Part shown: piece by piece, positions 7,707 to 32,552 of the stretch
Position numbering within the stretch: the first letter of the stretch is position 1
How the letters are laid out: each line of letters begins with the position of its first letter
The notes under the pieces: generated by a model
Database searches by the model: none
What the model was told of the DNA's origin: nothing
Seen by the model: only the letters and a program-made list of their open reading frames with translations
Position numbers and translations under genes: made by a program
From: Candidatus Velthaea sp.
GTDB taxonomy: Bacteria > Vulcanimicrobiota > Vulcanimicrobiia > Vulcanimicrobiales > Vulcanimicrobiaceae
Length of the DNA stretch: 64,000 nt
Assembly (NCBI GenBank): GCA_050012475.1
Contig: JBEKHC010000001.1
Coordinates: 64,001-128,000 of the forward strand
Reading direction: 5' to 3'

Positions 7707-8879
7707 ATGCCAGTCTCGCCAGCCCGCTCCCACGTCGCACGCCTTGCAGCGTTTACTCTGGCCGCCGGCTTGACCGCCTGCGGCGGGGGCGGCGGCAGCG
7801 CCGCGCTGAGCCCGGCTCTTCGTCCGGCGTCCAGTGCCCTGGGCGCGCTGGCGCCGACGGGTGCAGCGCGCTACTCGCTCGGGTTGGTCAACGCGGCTCC
7901 GGCGGAGATCGCGCAAATGCCGCACATCCGGCACGAGCTCTCGCTCACGACGCTTCCGGCGGCTGTCGATCTCTCGGCGAAAATGCCCGCAGTCGGATAC
8001 CAGGGCCAAGAAGGTTCGTGCGTCGGTTGGGCGACCGCGTATGCGATGCGCGGCTATGAGGCGCGTCAGGACGTGTGGTCGAGCATCGCGCCGCAAAGCA
8101 CCGATCCGGCGGTGAATTTCAGTCCGGCATTCGTTTATAACCAACTCGACGGCGGCAAGGACGCCGGCATTTCCATTCCCGCGGCCCTCGCCTTGATGCA
8201 GCAACGGGGCGCCGCAACGTTAGCCGACATGCCGTATGTTGCCGGCCAGTACAAAACGCAGCCGTCCGCCGCAGCGTTTGGCGACGCCGCGCACTATAAA
8301 GTGTCCTCGTTCGGCAGCATCGCTCCGAGCGACCTGACGTCGATGAAAGCGCAGGTCGCCGCCGGCATCCCGGTGATGCTGGCGATCAAAGTCTACGCCA
8401 ACCTCTACGCGCTGGGCGCGAACCAAGTCTACACGGGCATCGCGGGGACCTACGAAGGCGGACATGCAGTTTCGGTCGTCGGCTACGACGACGCGAAGCA
8501 GGCCGCCAAATTCATCAACTCCTGGGGCACGTCGTGGGGCACGGCGGGATACGGCTGGATCAGCTATGCAGCGTTGAATCAAATTACGGTCGAAGCCTAT
8601 TCGGCCATCGACGATCATGGTGCGCCCAAGCCGGTCGCTACCGTAGCGCCGGCGACACCGCGGCTGGCAACGACGCCCACACCGGCACCCAAGCCCAAAG
8701 TGACGCCGGCGCCGACGCCCAAACCCAAAACGACGCTGACGCCGAAGCCGGCCCCCAAGCCGACGGCAATCGCGAAGCCGACGCCGAAGCCAGCCCCCAA
8801 GCCCACGGCAACCGCGAAGCCGAAGCCGGCGCCGACCTCGTCGCCCAAACCGAAGGCAAGCGCGACGCCGCACGGCTAA
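7707..8879 (+). CDS. Papain-like C1 cysteine peptidase lipoprotein with Pro/Thr/Lys-rich tail
   Basis: Lipobox [14 protein letters not shown] (Gln/Cys), GGHAV (His), NSWG (Asn); C-terminal PAPKP repeats. Confidence 0.9.
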   Translation: MPVSPARSHVARLAAFTLAAGLTACGGGGGSAALSPALRPASSALGALAPTGAARYSLGLVNAAPAEIAQMPHIRHELSLTTLPAAVDLSAKMPAVGYQGQEGSCVGWATAYAMRGYEARQDVWSSIAPQSTDPAVNFSPAFVYNQLDGGKDAGISIPAALALMQQRGAATLADMPYVAGQYKTQPSAAAFGDAAHYKVSSFGSIAPSDLTSMKAQVAAGIPVMLAIKVYANLYALGANQVYTGIAGTYEGGHAVSVVGYDDAKQAAKFINSWGTSWGTAGYGWISYAALNQITVEAYSAIDDHGAPKPVATVAPATPRLATTPTPAPKPKVTPAPTPKPKTTLTPKPAPKPTAIAKPTPKPAPKPTATAKPKPAPTSSPKPKASATPHG

Positions 8880-12088: not shown

Positions 12089-12148
12089 ACCGGAAGAAGC
12101 GCCCGTAAAGCCTTCGTAAAACTTTTGCTTGGAGAGCCTTACATTACA

Positions 12149-13624
12149 ATGCGATCGTCCTTCACTCGATCAGCGATAGCGCGCTGCGCCGTGTTTGCCC
12201 TGGCCGGGAATCTCGCGGCCTGCGGCGGAGGCGGCGCCAGCAGCACGATCGCTCCTGCGCGCTCGAGCACCGTACCGTCCGCAGCGAACCGATTCTCGTT
12301 GGGCCTCGTCGCCGCGAAGCCGGCGGAAATCGCGCAAATGACGCACATCCGGCATCTGCTCAGCGTCACGACGTTACCCGCCGCGGTCGATTTGTCCGCG
12401 AAAATGCCGAGCGTGGGCGATCAGGGACAAGAAGGTTCGTGCGTCGCGTGGGCTTCCGCATATGCGATGCGCGGCTATGAAGCGCGCCAAGACGTCTGGG
12501 CCGCGATCGCTCCGAAGAGCACGGATCCGACGCTCAATTTCAGCGCGTCATTCATTTACAATCAGCTCAACGGCGGTCAGGATGCCGGCATCTCGATTCC
12601 CGCGGCGTTGAACCTCATGGAGCAAAAGGGAGCCGCGACGCTGGCGGACATGCCGTATGTGGCGGGCCAATTTACCACGCAACCCTCCGCTGCCGCTTTG
12701 AGCGACGCGACGCACTTCAAGCTCTCGTCGTACGGTTACATCGCGCCGACGGATTTCACGTCGATGAAAGGCCAACTCGCGGCCGGTATTCCCGTCATCC
12801 TCGCGATCCAGGTGTACAGCAACTTTTTCGGGCTCGGCCAAAATCAAGTGTACACCGGCGCCGCCGGAACGTACGAAGGCGGCCACGCGATCGCGGCCGT
12901 CGGCTATGACGATTCGAAACAGGCGGTCGAAATCATCAACTCATGGGGACCGTACTGGGGAACCGCGGGCTATGGTTGGATCAGCTATACTGCGTTGAGC
13001 CAAATCGGGCTCGAAGCGTATTCGGCGATCGACGACCACGGTGCACCACCAGCACCCGTTCCCAGCCCCACACCGACCGCGACCCCGGCGCCGTCCCCAA
13101 CCGCAACCGCCAAACCGTCGCCGACGCCGAGCACGACGCCAACCCCATCGCCGTCACCGACCGCGACGCCGAAACCGTCGCCGACACCGACGTCGACGCC
13201 GACCGCGACGCCGAAACCGTCGCCGACACCGACACCGACGCCGAAACCGTCGCCGACGCCGACACCGACGCCGGTTCCGACCGCGACGCCCAAACCGTCG
13301 CCGACTCCGACGCTCAAGCCGTCACCGACACCGACGCCCAAGCCGTCGCCGACACCGACGCCCAAGCCGTCGCCGACACCGACGCCCAAGCCGTCGCCCA
13401 CCGCGACACCGAAACCGTTACCCACCGCGACACCGAAGTCATCGCCGACCGCGATCCCCAAGTCGTCGCCGACCGTGACGCCCAAACCAGCGCCGACGGC
13501 AACGCACAAACCAACGGCGCCGCGCAAACCCTCACCGACGCCCAAACCTTCGGCGAAACCGACCGCCGAAGCGTCGAGTACTCCACACCCCTCACCGTCT
13601 CCGGCGGCGGCATCCGGCCGGTAA
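12149..13624 (+). CDS. Second papain-like C1 cysteine peptidase lipoprotein with long Pro/Thr-rich tail
   Basis: Lipobox [23 protein letters not shown]; close paralog of 7707..8879. Confidence 0.9.
13050..13610 (+). repeat. Coding tandem repeats (PKPSPTPT)n
   Basis: 24-nt units such as CCCAAGCCGTCGCCGACACCGACG repeated within the peptidase tail. Confidence 0.9.
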
Positions 13625-26056: not shown

Positions 26057-26208
26057 GTGGCGTTTTCGGGCTTCGCCCAAAGCCGCGGGTGTCGCTTTGG
26101 CCTGCACCATAAGCCGCGGTGGCGTTTTGGGCTTCGCCCAAAGCCGCGGGTGGCGTTTGGCGGTGCGCGCCGTGCCGCGGGTGGCGTTTGGCGGTGCGCG
26201 CCGAGCCG
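26057..26208. repeat. Five REP-like tandem units of about 31 nt
   Basis: GTGGCGTTT-type starts at about 26057, 26089, 26119, 26150, 26181; GGGCTTCGCCCAAAGCCGC is nearly the reverse complement of the 13681 repeats. Confidence 0.65.
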
Positions 26209-26396
26209 AGGTCGCGCTTCGTAGCCTCGCGATCGACGCGTTGTCGAGCGTGACTTGCCACCTGAGCAGGACGTGTCACGCGGCGTGCCGCGCGGGTGTG
26301 TTGGGGCTCGCTTTAACGGTTGTGATGTAATGCTTGCGAGCGCGCACGCCGATCTATTCGTACACAGGACTGTGGAAAAATGTGTGTGCCTTCGGT

Positions 26397-26423
26397 TAAG
26401 TTCTTGCCCTGCTCCGCCGATAT
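26397..26423 (+). promoter_or_regulatory. Putative sigma28-like promoter
   Basis: TAAG-N15-GCCGATAT followed by hairpin GTCAGTGAGT-CCTT-ACTCGTACTGAC (26426-26451). Confidence 0.55.
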
Positions 26424-26477
26424 CAGTCAGTGAGTCCTTACTCGTACTGACAACTCAAGCTTCCGCCAGGAGAACCC

Positions 26478-27080
26478 ATGAATCTTAACCTTATCGCTCG
26501 TTTTGGCGTCCTCGTCGCCATCGTTGCCTTGCCGGCGTGCAGCGGCGGCGGAGTGAGCACGTCGAGCGCCGCCCCCCTTTCCGCGGTCATTCCGCAAACC
26601 CAGAGCGTCAAGCTCAAGTCCGAGAGCCTGCGCAGCGACATCGTTTCAAAGGTGTCGACAAGCAGCTTGCGCAGCGACGTCATCGCACCCGCCACGGCGA
26701 AGGTGTCGACGAGCAGCTTGCGCAGCGACGTCATCGCACCCGCCACGTCGAAGGTGTCGACGAGCAGCTTGCGCAGCGACGTCATCGCACCCGCCACGTC
26801 GAAGGTGTCGACGAGCAGCTTGCGCAGCGACATCGTTTCAAAGGTGTCGACGAGCAGCTTACGCAGCGACGTCGTCTCAAAGGTGTCGACGAGCAGCTTG
26901 CGCAGCGACGTCGTCCCCGCCAAGGCGACTGCGGCGGCCCATGCCTCCAGTCTTCGCCTCGTCGTCCCGGGCCCGGGTCCGAAAGCTGGCCCGAAGAGCC
27001 TGCGCAGTGACATCGTCAAGGCGAATACGTCCAGCGTTCGCTTAGGCGGCAGAATGGCCGTCGACCCCGATCATCGCTGA
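26478..27080 (+). CDS. Lipoprotein composed of repeated (KVSTS)SLRSD[IV][VI] cassettes
   Basis: AGGAG RBS; signal peptide with lipobox LPAC-SGGG; 8 copies of SLRSD[IV][VI]. Confidence 0.8.
   Translation: MNLNLIARFGVLVAIVALPACSGGGVSTSSAAPLSAVIPQTQSVKLKSESLRSDIVSKVSTSSLRSDVIAPATAKVSTSSLRSDVIAPATSKVSTSSLRSDVIAPATSKVSTSSLRSDIVSKVSTSSLRSDVVSKVSTSSLRSDVVPAKATAAAHASSLRLVVPGPGPKAGPKSLRSDIVKANTSSVRLGGRMAVDPDHR
26620..26915 (+). repeat. Coding tandem repeats of 51 and 39 nt
   Basis: AAGGTGTCGAC at 26649, 26700, 26751, 26802, 26841, 26880. Confidence 0.95.
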
Positions 27081-27121
27081 CGGTGTACCGAAAGACAACT
27101 CTGAAAGGATAAGGAGGAGAG

Positions 27122-30100
27122 ATGCGCGCTGTTAGTCGTTCGCCACGTTCGACGATCTGGCAGCGCGCTGCCCTCGTTCGTAACTTCGTCGAACTGCTGT
27201 CGACTCAAGCACCCGCCGGAGATGTCTGGTCGATGTGCTGTGAGCCGATCGCCAACCTCATGGAAGCCCGCGGCGTCTCGATCGTCTTTTGCGAAGAGAG
27301 CGGGGACCGCGTTGCTTGTCAGATGGTCGACGGCGTTGCGACTTTTCCCAAGGAGACCGGGTTGGCGCCCCACTCGCTTGCCGCCGACGTCATCGCCGCG
27401 AATGCTACCGTGATCCGCGAACGCCCGGACCCGACCCAAACCTCGATCGGCGTTCCAATTCGTTTCGGGACAGCGTTGCTGGGTGCGATCTGTGTGGAAA
27501 ACGCCGTTCGTCCCGATCGGGAACTCATTACCCTGCTTGAATCGTGCGCGCTTTCGGCGGGCGCGCGGATCAATACCGACGCGATGGTCGACAATACGGC
27601 GCGCTACGAGCGGCTCGCATTCACCGATGCGCTGACCGGGATTGCGAATCGCCGTCGATTCGACGAAACGCTCGCCCTCGAGTGGTCGCGGGCCGCACGC
27701 AGCGGTTCGTCGTTGACTTTGTTGATGATGGACGTCGACCATTTCAAGCTGTACAACGATGCGTACGGTCATCCGGCGGGCGACGTCTGTCTCAAACACA
27801 TCGCGAGCGCGATCAAAGAGAGTACTCAGCGCTCTGCCGACCTCGGTGCCCGCTACGGTGGCGAAGAGTTCGTTGCGCTTTTGCCCGGGGTCGATCTCGA
27901 AGGCGGAACGCGCGTCGGCGAGGCGCTGCAACTCAACGTCGCAACCCGCGACATCGCGCACAGCGGGTCGTCGTTGTCGCGCGTTTCGCTTAGCATCGGC
28001 GTTGCCTCGATGGTCCCCAGCTTCGACAGCCGCTGCGACGTGCTGCTCACGGCGGCTGATGCGGCGCTGTACGAAGCTAAGCGCAGCGGCCGCAATCGCG
28101 TTTTCGCGGTCGGGTACACGCCGCCGGTTCAGCCGCAGCCGGCGCTCGTGCGCAATGTCGCGGCGCTCAACAACCTGCCCCAACAGCATACGCGCTTGAT
28201 CGGCCGCGTAACCGAAGTCTCCGAGATCATCGAACTCCTCGAGGAGTCGCCGCTGGTCACGCTTCAGGCCTGCGGAGGTGCCGGCAAGACCCGCATCAGC
28301 GTCGCGATCGCAACCGAGATGAGTGCCGCGTTCCCGGATGGTACGTGGTTCGTGGATCTTGCCCGGGTGACCGATCCGGCCCTCATCCCCGGAACGATCG
28401 GTTCGCTTTTCCGGCTCGAGATCACACCGGGTGCAAACGCCGCTGGTTCGCTTGCACGAGCGCTCGCCGCCAAGAACACGCTGCTCGTCTTCGACAACTG
28501 CGAACACGTTCTCGAGGCGACTGCCGAAGTCGCCACGGCGTTATTGCAGACGTGCGGCGGCGTGCGGATCCTGGCGACGAGCCGGGAGCCCTTGGGTATC
28601 CGCGGCGAGACCATCTACCGGTTACCGCTCCTCGCGGTTCCGCCGTTGGACGCTCCGCTCGATGCCGAGAGAGCCACCGGCTACGAGGCCGTCGCGCTGT
28701 TCGTCGAACGAGCCAAGGCGGCGAAGCGTGATTTTCGCCTCACCGACGAGAACGCCGCCATCGTCGGCGCGATCGTTCGTCAGCTCGACGGGATTGCGTT
28801 GGCAATCGAACTCGCCGCCGCGCGCGTCAGCGTCATCAGCGTCGGCGAGATTGCCAAACGTTTGGGCGAACGCTTTCGGTTGCTCAAGGGCGGCGACCGA
28901 ACGGCATTGCCCCGGCAGCAGACGATGCGCGCGCTCATCGATTGGAGCTACGATCTGCTCTCGCTCGAGGAGCAGCTCGTCTTCCGCCGGTTGTCGGTTT
29001 TCGTCGGTGGCTGGACGCTCGAGGCGATGAGCGAGATTTGCGCCGGCGGTGAACTCGACGAAGACGACGTATTCGATTTGCTCGGCGGCCTCGTCCGCAA
29101 GTCGCTCGTCGTCGATACGATCGACGACTCGACGAGCCGCTATCGCCTATTGGAGTCGGTGCGTGAGTACGCCGGCGAGAAGCTCGATGCTGAAGCGGAG
29201 AGCGACGACCTGCACCGCCGTCACGCGCACTACTACCTCGTGCTGGCCGAAGCCGCGAAGTCGACGTACTACACGACGGCCTCGAAACAGTGGCTGCTCA
29301 AGTTTCTTCCGGAGTGGGAGAATTTCCGCGGCGCGCTGCACTGGTCGCTGGCTCTGGGCAAGGATATCAAGCTCGGGGCGACGCTGGCTGGTGCGCTCGT
29401 GATGTTCTTGTCCCACGTTTCACCCAATGAGAGCCTCCGCTGGACACGCATGGCGCTGGCGCGCTTGCCGGCCGACAGCGAACCCGCGATCGAAGCCGCC
29501 CTATGGTACGGCGTCGGGCGAGCCGCCGAAAATCTGCCTGCCGACCAAATGCGCGCCGCTGCCGAACGCGCCGTCGCGCTTGCGCGCGTCGCCGGCAATC
29601 AACAGTTGCTGGGTGAAGCGCTGCGTCGGCTCATGGTCGTCCTGGGCTGGTATTATCCCGAAGAACAGGCGTTCACCGCGGCCCTGGGGCAAGAAGCCAT
29701 CGAGTCGGCGCGCGCCTTGGGCGAGCCGATCGAAATCGCGCTGGCCCTGCGCAGTTTGAGCGTCTCAATCGATAACTCCGATGTCGCGCGCAAGCTGGCC
29801 GTTCTCGAAGAGAGCCTGACCCTGCTCTTGGCGCACGGCAACGATTTACAAACTGCCGTGGCCTTCATGTGGCTGGCTGAGTATGATTTCTGCTTCGGCG
29901 GAGCGCTCAAGGCTACGAGCTACGCCCGCGAAGCGATGCGGTCCGCCGAAGAATCGGGCTCGGGCAGCATGCTCGCTCAGATGGCCACGAACCTAGCCCA
30001 GTACGCAGCCGCCGAAGGCGACTGGGCAGCCACGCGCAAGGCGGCTGCCAACGCCGCCGAAGCCGCCGGTCAGCTCGGCATGGACGATCAGGTCACCTGG

Positions 30101-30367
30101 GCGATACAAGCACTGGCGATCGCGAGCGCCGGGGCCGGCGATTGCCAAACGGCCGCGCGGCTTCTGGGCTTTTGCGATAGCCGAACCGGTACGCTGCACA
30201 GTCAGCGCCAGGTGAACGGCGCCGAAGACATCTTGTATCGCCGGTTGCTGGCAACGCTCAAAGAAGAGCTTGACCCAGCGGTGATGGATGCTGAAATGAA
30301 GTGCGGCGTGGGTCTCACCGAAACCGAGGCGGTCCAGGCCGGACTCGCCGTCGCCCTAGCGGCCTGA
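27122..30367 (+). CDS. GAF-like / diguanylate cyclase (GGDEF) / STAND-type ATPase / TPR-like multidomain protein
   Basis: DALTGIANRR, DVDHFKLYND, RSAD I-site, RYGGEEF; NNLP..LIGR, ACGGAGKTR Walker A, LLVFDNCEH Walker B, LDGIALAIELAAAR; helical C-terminus; AAGGAGGAG RBS. Confidence 0.9.
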   Translation: MRAVSRSPRSTIWQRAALVRNFVELLSTQAPAGDVWSMCCEPIANLMEARGVSIVFCEESGDRVACQMVDGVATFPKETGLAPHSLAADVIAANATVIRERPDPTQTSIGVPIRFGTALLGAICVENAVRPDRELITLLESCALSAGARINTDAMVDNTARYERLAFTDALTGIANRRRFDETLALEWSRAARSGSSLTLLMMDVDHFKLYNDAYGHPAGDVCLKHIASAIKESTQRSADLGARYGGEEFVALLPGVDLEGGTRVGEALQLNVATRDIAHSGSSLSRVSLSIGVASMVPSFDSRCDVLLTAADAALYEAKRSGRNRVFAVGYTPPVQPQPALVRNVAALNNLPQQHTRLIGRVTEVSEIIELLEESPLVTLQACGGAGKTRISVAIATEMSAAFPDGTWFVDLARVTDPALIPGTIGSLFRLEITPGANAAGSLARALAAKNTLLVFDNCEHVLEATAEVATALLQTCGGVRILATSREPLGIRGETIYRLPLLAVPPLDAPLDAERATGYEAVALFVERAKAAKRDFRLTDENAAIVGAIVRQLDGIALAIELAAARVSVISVGEIAKRLGERFRLLKGGDRTALPRQQTMRALIDWSYDLLSLEEQLVFRRLSVFVGGWTLEAMSEICAGGELDEDDVFDLLGGLVRKSLVVDTIDDSTSRYRLLESVREYAGEKLDAEAESDDLHRRHAHYYLVLAEAAKSTYYTTASKQWLLKFLPEWENFRGALHWSLALGKDIKLGATLAGALVMFLSHVSPNESLRWTRMALARLPADSEPAIEAALWYGVGRAAENLPADQMRAAAERAVALARVAGNQQLLGEALRRLMVVLGWYYPEEQAFTAALGQEAIESARALGEPIEIALALRSLSVSIDNSDVARKLAVLEESLTLLLAHGNDLQTAVAFMWLAEYDFCFGGALKATSYAREAMRSAEESGSGSMLAQMATNLAQYAAAEGDWAATRKAAANAAEAAGQLGMDDQVTWAIQALAIASAGAGDCQTAARLLGFCDSRTGTLHSQRQVNGAEDILYRRLLATLKEELDPAVMDAEMKCGVGLTETEAVQAGLAVALAA

Positions 30368-30378
30368 AACGTTCGCCG

Positions 30379-32220
30379 TTAGACCGCGCGCACGTCGGGT
30401 GCCAGCGGCGGATCGAACGGCGCGCCGTTGCGATAGCGTGCCAACTCAATTGCGCTCAGCGCAACCGAGGCATGCGCGACCACCCGCGCGAGGTGTTCGC
30501 GTTCTTCGGGATCGAGATCCAGCCCGCTGACGTTGTGACCGTACATCACGATGCCCAGCACGGCCCGGTCGAAAAAGATCGGCGCGGCGAACGTGAGCCG
30601 CTCACCGGGAAATGCGCGGGCGATGATCCCGCTGTCCTTACTGCTGAAGCTCAATGCGCCGCGCGTACGCGTGAGCTTGCGGGTCAATTCGTCGTCGGCC
30701 GCCAACCGGGTGATGCAGTCGCTGGGCCAGTTGTGCTCGTACGATAAAGCGTAGTCGCCGGAGGGAAGCCGGGCGAGAAAGCCGCCGAAAGAAAGCTGCA
30801 GCGCGTGCGCGGCGTCGGCAAGCAGTGCCCGGTACACGTCGTCGCGCGCTTCGGCGTCGAGAATGTATCCCTCGATGAGTTCGAGCGCCCGGCGCTGATC
30901 GCGCCGGTTACGGAAAATGAAACGATCGACGACGTGCTGCAGAATCGGATTGATCTTGCCGGTCGCCGCTCCGATTCCCATCGACAGTAAAATGATGAAC
31001 CCGTACGCGACGTCGGTGTTGTTATAGAATACGTAGGTGCCGACTTCTTCGATGACGCTCACCGTCCCGAACGCGGCGGCGGTCAGAGCGACGTACACGA
31101 TCGCGCGGCTCACGACGAAGTCGACATTGAAGAAACGCTGCCGCAACACTGCAATCCCGACGCCGACGATCGGCACGATCGTCGCCGACACGAGGATACC
31201 GTTGACCCAGGGCGGTATCCAGCGCGGGAACAGTTCGTCCGAAGCCAGCCGCGCGGCCGCCGCGAAAAGGAACGTCGCAACGATCCAAACGATGCGCTGC
31301 CGCTCGATCCCGCGCGCGCGTACGAACGCGATCACGAACGTGACCGTGGTGAGCACGGTCAGGACGTCGGCGGCGGTCGTCGAGAAACGGCCGATACGAC
31401 CCGCCGGCTCACCGGCGTAGGTGAGCAGCCACGCGCCGTACGCGTCGACCGTTCCCAACGCCAGCGCGGTCGCCGCGCAAAGCAGCGCGAAGACGCGCTC
31501 GCGCCGCGCGTCGGCGTCGCCGTCGATCAAGCACAGCGCAAAGAGCAAGAGCGCCGGACGCGCAGCACCGCGAAGCGTGTCCCCGAACCATTGCGGAATC
31601 GGCCGCCAGGGGTTGGGAACGATGAGATCCAGATACGTCGTGGGCGCTTCGGCGCCTAAACAAAAGACCAAGAACGCTGCCGTCGCGATGCCGGGCTTGA
31701 CCAAAAAGAGAATCGCGCCGATCGCGATCGAAATGATGAAGATGGTGATGCGCAAGACGGCGAAGAACCGGCTCGCGGGCGACTCGGGCCGCGCGACGAG
31801 ATGCAGCACCTGAACTCGTCCGTTTCGCTCGACCGGCAAGAACCGGTCGGGGTTGTCATACGTGAAGCCGACGCCCGCGAGCCCGGGCTTGCGATCGTAG
31901 GGCTTGATCCGATCGATCCGCACGCGATCGTGGATGGCGATACGGTCGGGCCGCGACGGCTGCTGCTTGTCGTTTTTGGATCGCGGTCGCGCGGGGCTGC
32001 GGCGGGCTGCTTCCGGGCGAGCATTCGTTGCATGCGCGCTCAGGACGACGCCGTCACCGTCGGTGACGTAATCGAAAACGTTGAGCGGATAGACGACGCG
32101 CACGAGGTCGGGGACGACGCGGGCCAGGGCGAACGCGACGAAGATCCCGACGAGAACCAAGCGCACCCACTGCGCGCGGTTCAAATAAACCCGGGGCAGG
32201 TCGGCTTCGAGATCTTTCAC
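30379..32220 (-). CDS. Multi-pass membrane protein with C-terminal GAF-like domain
   Basis: N-terminal TM, extracytoplasmic loop, many TM helices, then GAF-like ..APIF..LGIVMYG..DLDPEEREHL; start GTG 32220 uncertain. Confidence 0.7.
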   Translation of the reverse strand: MKDLEADLPRVYLNRAQWVRLVLVGIFVAFALARVVPDLVRVVYPLNVFDYVTDGDGVVLSAHATNARPEAARRSPARPRSKNDKQQPSRPDRIAIHDRVRIDRIKPYDRKPGLAGVGFTYDNPDRFLPVERNGRVQVLHLVARPESPASRFFAVLRITIFIISIAIGAILFLVKPGIATAAFLVFCLGAEAPTTYLDLIVPNPWRPIPQWFGDTLRGAARPALLLFALCLIDGDADARRERVFALLCAATALALGTVDAYGAWLLTYAGEPAGRIGRFSTTAADVLTVLTTVTFVIAFVRARGIERQRIVWIVATFLFAAAARLASDELFPRWIPPWVNGILVSATIVPIVGVGIAVLRQRFFNVDFVVSRAIVYVALTAAAFGTVSVIEEVGTYVFYNNTDVAYGFIILLSMGIGAATGKINPILQHVVDRFIFRNRRDQRRALELIEGYILDAEARDDVYRALLADAAHALQLSFGGFLARLPSGDYALSYEHNWPSDCITRLAADDELTRKLTRTRGALSFSSKDSGIIARAFPGERLTFAAPIFFDRAVLGIVMYGHNVSGLDLDPEEREHLARVVAHASVALSAIELARYRNGAPFDPPLAPDVRAV

Positions 32221-32552
32221 GCCCCGGCGTTTTACCCAATCGCCGGCCGTTGCCGGCGTCGCGACGTCGCGGCGTCGGTTTCGCCTTCTTTGCGCACCGC
32301 TGCGTAAGCGCTGCGCGCGATAAGCTCGCCGCTGCAGACCTCGTGCTGCGCAAGCGGCTTGCCGCACGTGCCGGCGTTGCTGAGATCGTTGGTCGCAGGG
32401 GTCGAGCGCGGCGCGTGATTTGCGGCGCAACTTCTCGCGGAACCGTCGTGAACCGGGTCGTGACTGCCCGCTGCACGGTCGTCTGAAAGAAATGTTCGGA
32501 AAATATCAGGTCCGTCAGATGCGCGGCGCTTCCGGGGCGCGAAAGGCAGGGC

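Follow-up and report, generated by a model that had tools for sequence, protein, structure and literature searches.

A repeat lipoprotein gene paired with a STAND-TPR diguanylate cyclase gene behind a sigma28-type promoter: a possible propeptide system in Candidatus Velthaea

We have analysed a stretch of 64,000 nucleotides from Candidatus Velthaea sp. (assembly GCA_050012475.1, contig JBEKHC010000001.1, positions 64,001 to 128,000 of the forward strand; hereafter the window), which contains a two-gene unit probably driven by FliA. The first gene encodes an exported, unstructured protein of the lipid-anchor type, largely made of short repeated cassettes, and the second encodes a diguanylate cyclase controlled by an NLR-like STAND module. 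The cassettes appear to be kept by selection and to have a recognition partner that varies from lineage to lineage. We propose, as a model with somewhat less than an even chance of being right, that the lipoprotein is a multi-cassette propeptide whose released peptides would tune the cyclase. The features of the unit are the following.

26396..26423, + strand: sigma28 (FliA)-type promoter, -35 TTAAG, N15, -10 GCCGATAT
26432..26443, + strand: 5' leader element GAGT-N4-RCTC, conserved in four loci, with a possible 4-bp hairpin
26468..26472, + strand: putative ribosome-binding site of the lipoprotein gene, AGGAG, kept as AGGAG/AGGGG in the metagenomic loci L124 to L126
26478..27080, + strand: lipoprotein gene (candidate propeptide), 200 residues, multi-cassette
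26478..26540, + strand: predicted signal peptide and lipobox-type site ALPA/C (Cys21), from the sequence pattern
26625..26915, + strand: seven SLRSD[IV][VI] cores starting at 26625, 26664, 26715, 26766, 26817, 26856 and 26895, in units of 17 and 13 residues
26949..27050, + strand: SLRLVV (26949), the eighth core SLRSDIV (26997) and SVRLGG (27033), all in diverged flanks
27111..27117, + strand: putative strong ribosome-binding site of the cyclase gene, AAGGAGG; intergenic gap of 41 nt
27122..30367, + strand: GAF-GGDEF-STAND(NBD-HD1-WHD)-TPR diguanylate cyclase gene, 1081 residues, product predicted to be cytoplasmic
27149..27577, + strand: GAF-like domain, then a helical linker (residues ~10-152); Pfam GAF E 0.003, below cut-off, with an alpha/beta fold in the model
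27617..28099, + strand: GGDEF domain (PF00990, E 8e-47), RSAD I-site at residues 237-240, GGEEF at 246-250, WspR-like fold
28169..29191, + strand: STAND nucleotide-binding oligomerisation (NOD) module, Walker A ACGGAGKT, Walker B DNCEH
29201..30361, + strand: arm and TPR-like helical sensor (residues 694-1080), from the AlphaFold2 model and its Foldseek match 6MFV

The lipoprotein opens with a hydrophobic core and a lipobox-type motif, ALPA/CSGGG with Cys21, identified by its sequence pattern only; the Pro at -2 is non-canonical, yet it is present in another lipoprotein of the host genome, and the signal peptide is the best-conserved segment of the precursor family. SLRSD[IV][VI] starts at residues 50, 63, 80, 97, 114, 127, 140 and 174 (n=8), preceded by KVSTS in six of the eight copies and flanked by KSE and GPK in the other two, and the tandem periods (51 bp in 3.6 copies, 39 bp in 2.9 copies) correspond to units of 17 and 13 residues. 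Two variant S[LV]RL cores beyond these eight, SLRLVV at residue 158 and SVRLGG at residue 186, recur in homologues. Comparison with Pfam and NCBIfam gave nothing above cut-off, and the AlphaFold2 model is unstructured except for the signal helix (predicted local distance difference test score, pLDDT, of 46; six-row alignment, hence weak). A reading made from the letters of the window, hereafter the sequence-only reading, had described a 200-residue lipoprotein with no recognisable folded domain, built of eight such cores mostly behind KVSTS in units of 13 and 17 residues, with the core preserved in two copies whose flanks had diverged, and all of this was borne out.

The motif [SN][LV]R is found 10 times in the lipoprotein versus 0.6 in shuffled sequences, and 0 of 10,000 shuffles reached 10, although the motif was picked post hoc and the shuffles take no account of tandem duplication. 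Among 50 candidate host lipoproteins selected by a pattern filter, none besides this one contains more than one [SN][LV]R; a general role for S[LV]R in the processing of host lipoproteins found no support among them and was discarded. A 5-mer repeated three times is present in five of 1,587 secreted-looking host open reading frames (ORFs); the four besides the lipoprotein are low-complexity sequences or probably spurious. Elsewhere in the host genome (G000), a 128-residue lipoprotein at C98 2631-3017, consisting almost entirely of PTxAP/PTAT repeats, is encoded beside other lipoprotein genes.

Homologues of the precursor were obtained from profile and word searches (P0001, P0002, P0007, P0008 and P0012), and a metagenome scan yielded at least three true precursor loci (L124, L125 and L126) among the four matches listed. 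The family, ranging from 104 to 210 residues with up to 10 cores, has the signal peptide in common, together with a cassette centred on [SN][LV]R that each gene carries in a form of its own: SLRSD in the window, SVRTD in L124, NLR[ST][SD] in P0002, SVR[AG]D in P0007 and SLIAN, where the Arg is lost, in L125. A second core type, S[LV]R[LIM], also recurs in the majority of family members, as S[LV]RL in P0002, P0007 and P0008, SVRI in L124 and SVRM in L125. The locus-specific cores anticipated by the sequence-only reading do exist (SVRTD, SLIAN), within one small clade. Several homologues have Pro-rich spacers, and those of L125 are of a low-complexity S/T/P kind.

The best evidence for a lineage-dependent partner of the cassette comes from cores outside the tandem arrays. 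In both the window and L124, the first core and the one before the last lie in orthologous, non-tandem flanks, yet carry the variant of their own gene. When non-tandem cores were compared with array cores over five codons, eight synonymous and no non-synonymous changes were counted (three in the window, three in L124 and two in L125), with one frameshifted L124 copy dropped and with the ascertainment caveat that copies were chosen by their matching core. These comparisons provide good support for a cassette kept by selection, with synonymous changes even in diverged flanks, and because the non-tandem cores follow the variant of their gene through synonymous changes only, the cassette probably serves as the recognition site of a partner that is not the same in all lineages. 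The repeats could otherwise be filler generated by slippage in a dispensable lipoprotein, the motif having no function. Tandem copies that are 94-98% identical in DNA would fit this, as would the different unit number of P0001, which is the same gene with fewer units (123 residues, on a 761-bp contig; a natural variant or an assembly collapse), and the failure to find the gene in 347 other family genomes searched. Nevertheless, the cores persist with synonymous changes where the flanks are unalignable, [SN][LV]R recurs in homologues merely 32-48% identical, and promoter, leader and ribosome-binding site are all conserved, which renders slippage an improbable explanation.

Other searches for the precursor returned one unrelated 29% match in genome contigs, with 0 of 195 stretches positive, and in family genomes signal-peptide matches only (6/150 and 8/347, 13 of these 14 loci having been read), the family-wide profile searches scoring 10-21 candidates per genome with limited sensitivity. 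Word-indexed protein searches gave only P0001, P0002 and P0006, and all ESM Atlas matches were at 0.80 or lower. P0009, P0011, P0013 and L127 were rejected by eye as unrelated, and P0010 as a short N-terminal match lacking cassettes.

The promoter of the unit is, on sequence grounds, well supported as sigma28 type. It has 12 bases in common with a native flagellin promoter, AAGTTCTTGCCC; a site of the same type precedes all three host flagellin genes and the host encodes FliA, so that the match to native FliA sites in a FliA-positive genome by which a FliA-regulon member is recognised is found here in sequence. Genome-wide, the sigma28 motif is enriched at spacings of 15-16 nt (17 and 9 sites, as against 2-7 for the remaining spacings), and the promoter blocks TTAAGTT and CCGAT are invariant in the window, L124, L125 and L126. 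The likeness to host flagellin promoters and the conservation in four loci agree with the earlier proposal of a sigma28-like promoter ahead of both genes. The promoter pattern matched 3 of 353 genomes, namely the window exactly and two one-mismatch sites in unrelated genes, and pattern matches there sat at the level of a reversed-pattern control; six viral-contig matches were dismissed as unrelated. Scanning for sigma70 promoters and terminators found nothing. A structured leader RNA was also rejected, with no Rfam match, no covariation and an unsupported stem extension. The lipoprotein sequence occurs in two RNA libraries, in which X12 contigs cover the precursor from 26448 and contig X13 (26992-27547) bridges the precursor and cyclase genes; RNA libraries may contain DNA, and the X13 and X12 contigs thus denote presence, not co-transcription. 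In X12 a single contig, with a 21-nt side, points to a shorter variant joint, which was too weak to use.

Two observations concern the surroundings of such promoters. Between the upstream ABC-2 genes and the promoter, window positions 26057-26208 hold intergenic GC-rich repeats with a period of ~31 bp (4.3 and 3.2 copies), and L126 has another short repeat at the matching place. In the host genome, three tandem flagellin genes (G000:C93 4408-7950) each follow a sigma28-like promoter and have a conserved leader resembling a hairpin, GAGGCCATGAnGGCCTC.

For the product of the second gene, an AlphaFold2 model built on a 40-row alignment (pLDDT 90) comprises a GAF domain, a linker helix, GGDEF, NBD-HD1-WHD and an array of helical hairpins at residues 694-1080, and its top Foldseek match in the PDB is the STAND-TPR protein 6MFV. 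The NB-ARC match (E 0.02) lies under the Pfam cut-off and Pfam TPR models gave no match in the cyclase; even so, the NBD-HD1-WHD-arm-sensor order with Walker A and B that characterises STANDs with a TPR sensor is present. The GG[DE]EF motif of active diguanylate cyclases and the RxxD I-site are intact in the sequence, and the first Gly of Walker A, near-invariant in relatives, is Ala383 in the window cyclase and in the orthologue L002. The protein thereby has good support as a predicted STAND-controlled diguanylate cyclase with intact catalytic motifs, probably cytoplasmic, as the model has no membrane segment. A GAF-GGDEF-STAND-TPR gene with a strong ribosome-binding site 41 nt downstream had indeed been described from the letters alone: AAGGAGG is there, the gap is exact, and the TPR part is recognised by structure only. 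An N-terminal profile of the cyclase matches 45 of 348 family genomes, the full-length loci read share the architecture, and the full-length orthologue L002 is 66% identical.

Related proteins show further variation. P0004 is a 437-residue form of the same cyclase that runs out of frame soon after Walker A, either a strain variant or an assembly error, and near the 3' end of L125 the GGEEF region reads GRDAF by the contig end, either a sequencing error or a degenerate active site. The host genome has 13 more STAND hits (C12, C40, C78, C2, C29, C18, C49, C38 and C33), mostly with TPR-like C-termini and with N-terminal outputs that include helix-turn-helix (HTH), TIR-like and others; C40 carries a tandem pair and C12 a GGDEF-STAND protein lacking TPR.

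The precursor lies directly before an orthologous cyclase in three of three loci with visible downstream DNA (window, L124 and L125), a count that leaves out L126, which ends inside the precursor, and P0002, P0007, P0008 and P0012. L125 has a different upstream neighbour and a different core but the same promoter-precursor-cyclase order, and no member of the precursor family was seen away from the cyclase among the few visible contexts. Several points, the narrowness of that count among them, weigh against the propeptide model. The adjacency may be a matter of inheritance because the three paired loci are close kin: in the tree, from which L124 was excluded for its frameshifts, the window and L125 form a clade (98/94) with L002 as sister (100/100). 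The locus of L002 also occurs in G139, a 94% complete genome of the same genus, and there the cyclase start comes 7 nt after the end of a sigma28-like site, the interval between the ABC-2 and cyclase genes contains no precursor, and the genome gave no profile match. The TPR region of L002 is 64-67% identical, as conserved as its NBD (65%), which would fit a ligand common to both orthologues. A cassette-bearing secreted neighbour was found at 0 of 100 other STAND-TPR loci (ORFs of at most 400 residues within 700 nt) and at 0 of 13 other STAND hits in the host genome, and the loci recovered include no second TPR sequence coupled to another core. Moreover, no dedicated protease is encoded adjacent to the pair, and a lipoprotein-type signal in a diderm cell disfavours spread from cell to cell.

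No cassette-bearing neighbour was found either at 26 of 28 family loci returning a host ORF (in three, the host was uncertain or there was no upstream DNA), and L002 alone among 17 relatives has a sigma28-like site before the cyclase. From L002 and the null neighbour surveys, therefore, the conserved unit is the sigma28 site plus the cyclase, the precursor having either been acquired by a subclade or disappeared from L002. The sequence-only reading had called for a survey of upstream genes for repeat precursors; such a precursor does recur in L124 and L125, but an association reaching beyond one clade did not emerge, and the expectation was thus borne out in part. Two loci deserve separate mention. 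At ~4966-5003 of L002 (G139:C8) the -10 box 7 nt before the cyclase ATG suggests a leaderless transcript, and at L073 7264-7944, on an Acidimicrobiales contig, secreted-looking low-complexity repeats (ETTIP, DDDAD) with no sequence kinship directly follow a STAND-TPR gene.

These distributions also bear on a different function, in which the lipoprotein is a disordered, membrane-tethered envelope protein whose repeats bind a partner outside the cytoplasm, be it a component of the flagellum or envelope, a protease for which it is substrate or decoy, or a glycosylation enzyme. Its gene would share the sigma28 promoter through having entered the space ahead of the cyclase in one clade, and the cyclase would sense something else. 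We consider this the main competitor of the propeptide model and only slightly less probable than it. L002 presents promoter and cyclase without the lipoprotein, and its TPR is conserved despite the missing precursor. The site between the ABC-2 and 683-residue protein genes is variable in the genus, being empty in G076, occupied by an unrelated gene in G116 and by other genes plus the cyclase in G139. Low-complexity S/T/P lipoproteins such as the 128-residue one at C98 occur in the genome, the L125 spacers are alike, and a lipid anchor fits tethering. What this explanation leaves unaccounted for is the wholesale change of core between relatives, its uniformity within a gene and the loss of Arg in L125; nor has the family been seen away from the cyclase, though contexts are few.

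The host is a diderm, flagellated member of the Eremiobacterota (Candidatus Velthaea group), and the locus is known from few uncultured peat and soil bacteria. Its genome encodes BamA, FliA, three flagellins and 13 SBP_bac_5 peptide-binding proteins, and in Vulcanimicrobium, a relative in culture, the envelope is of the Gram-negative kind (PMC9758169). With a diderm envelope, the exported lipoprotein therefore faces the periplasm or the surface. As for neighbouring genes, the upstream ABC-2 exporter was rejected as part of the unit, for the three genomes of the genus without the precursor all have it too. On the other side, window 30379-32430 (- strand) encodes a membrane protein of 683 residues that is GAF-like towards its C-terminus, is without a match in Pfam or NCBIfam, and is conserved next to the site in all four genomes of the genus (as two split matches in G139). 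Two paralogous papain-family (Peptidase_C1) proteins are encoded at window 7707-8879 and 12125-13624; the former resembles a lipoprotein, has a sigma28-like site upstream (C1:71622) and might be a candidate sigma28-controlled exported protease for precursor processing.

In favour of the propeptide model, besides the adjacency in three of three loci, the order kept in L125 and the gene-specific cores, are the lack of a folded domain, the 13 SBP_bac_5 proteins and a cytoplasmic TPR-sensor STAND of the PH0952/MalT fold. Beyond the anatomy, promoter, core selection and clade-level adjacency documented above, from cleavage onward, we infer the following course. After export, periplasmic proteases would cut the lipoprotein into several copies of a peptide of 5-13 residues, which Opp/Dpp-type permeases would import and which would bind the TPR sensor, or the GAF domain. 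GGDEF domains act as dimers, and a STAND that multimerises upon an inducer would suit them for that reason: binding might shift the module between a closed monomer and an oligomer that unites the GGDEF domains, so changing cyclic di-GMP (c-di-GMP). Multimerisation upon inducer binding is described for STANDs of the PH0952/MalT class (PMC6468293). Made in the flagellated state, the peptide could act with a delay as a signal to self or kin in the switch from motile to sessile life, cassette number setting the gain and core sequence the pherotype, and precursor-less orthologues such as L002 might be eavesdropping or orphan receptors. The diderm envelope together with the lipid anchor suggests that such a signal would be self-timed or short in range, unlike classical quorum sensing. 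In its most specific form, a lipid-anchored, sigma28-driven polyprotein yielding up to ten pherotype-specific peptides that are imported and flip an NLR-like STAND-TPR cyclase in a diderm phylum, the proposal is distinctly tentative.

Two further explanations take the repeats differently. In graspetide-type ribosomally synthesised and post-translationally modified peptides (RiPPs), Ser, Thr or Lys are crosslinked to Asp, and the lipoprotein could be a multi-core RiPP precursor, for instance of this type, whose enzymes are encoded elsewhere. Repeated cores with Lys, Ser, Thr and Asp and an ABC-2 exporter upstream would agree with it; yet no maturase family was found among the window ORFs scanned (34 + 5, selected long ORFs), the ABC-2 genes are there without any precursor in the same-genus genomes, Asp is missing from several cores (P0002, P0012 and L125), and a Sec lipoprotein signal takes the place of a leader. 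We hold this to be highly improbable. Hardly more credit can be given to amyloid templating of the NLR-like protein in the manner of BASS/Bell systems, or to a secreted functional amyloid. An adjacent, collinear small gene with a STAND-TPR gene and Ser/Thr/Val-rich repeats are as expected of it, and the sequence-only reading had entertained an amyloid-like repeat. The shared motif that defines such pairs was not found, however: lipoprotein and cyclase have no common 5-mer and just two 4-mers, the cyclase begins with a GAF domain, the membrane would separate the two partners, and several homologues have Pro-rich spacers.

Among the top results listed from an open-access library, supplements aside, we found no description of the lipoprotein-cyclase pair, the repeat-lipoprotein family or a sigma28-linked NLR-like cyclase. 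The locus is real and lineage-restricted, and the signalling model is plausible, if still on the doubtful side. If true, peptide signalling, described in its imported form for Bacillota (PMC10075063), would reach Gram-negative Eremiobacterota, coupled to c-di-GMP through an NLR-like switch. It would also provide a natural peptide ligand for bacterial signalling STAND-TPR proteins, a large class of which most are orphans, and a short synthetic ligand with an easy enzymatic read-out for STAND activation. What activates STAND-TPR regulators such as AfsR in nature is regarded as unidentified in bioRxiv 10.64898/2026.09.02.748808. Natural controls are at hand in the other cores of L124 and L125 and in the precursor-less orthologue. 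If not true, there would still stand a small, new lipoprotein family with repeated motifs, together with an NLR-like cyclase linked to sigma28.

Among known systems, the closest likeness is to RRNPP systems, in particular Rap-Phr with duplicated pheromones: an exported precursor with repeated cores adjoins the gene of a cytoplasmic TPR regulator, peptide permeases are present and variant cores occur inside one precursor. The criteria for RRNPP pairs are a propeptide of 10-100 residues, a receptor of 250-500 residues, TPRs, adjacent genes and Sec secretion, for which the strict level demands a signal peptidase I (SPI) signal and a relaxed level permits a lipoprotein signal (PMC10075063), and RRNPPA propeptides may carry 1-4 repeated pheromones (PMC11343458). 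Here the genes are adjacent (41 nt, likewise adjacent in L124 and L125, with L002 lacking the precursor) and the TPR is found structurally, whereas a propeptide of 200 residues and a receptor of 1081 residues fall outside the size ranges; because two of the five published criteria fail, we do not file the system as an RRNPP member. The family precursors, at 104-210 residues with at most 10 cores and a lipoprotein-type signal, differ from RRNPP ones of 10-100 or 50-120 residues with 1-4 repeats, and a STAND ATPase with cyclase output differs from receptors of 250-500 residues that bind DNA or protein. The host, moreover, is diderm and not of the Bacillota, and peptide binding is here a proposal.

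With PH0952/MalT and AfsR the cyclase shares the NOD-arm-TPR architecture, and AfsR is likewise flanked by a small, variable, repeat-containing gene, afsS (bioRxiv 10.64898/2026.09.02.748808). The output here is GGDEF with no SARP or HTH, in contrast to transcription via SARP in AfsR, and while afsS is described there as an AfsR target, the repeat gene of the window lies upstream, behind a sigma28-like promoter, and has an export signal; the resemblance to AfsR/AfsS is one of layout only. BASS pairs, as defined in bioRxiv 10.1101/2020.01.06.895854, have a motif common to the effector C-terminus and the NLR N-terminus. A small collinear gene adjoining an NLR-like gene recalls these BASS/Bell arrangements, from which the present pair differs in having no shared motif, no Bell or effector domain and an exported partner. 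Closest in architecture are the uncharacterised GAF-GGDEF-STAND-TPR cyclases of other Eremiobacterota, from which the present clade is set apart by its sigma28-like site and, in part of its members, by the precursor.

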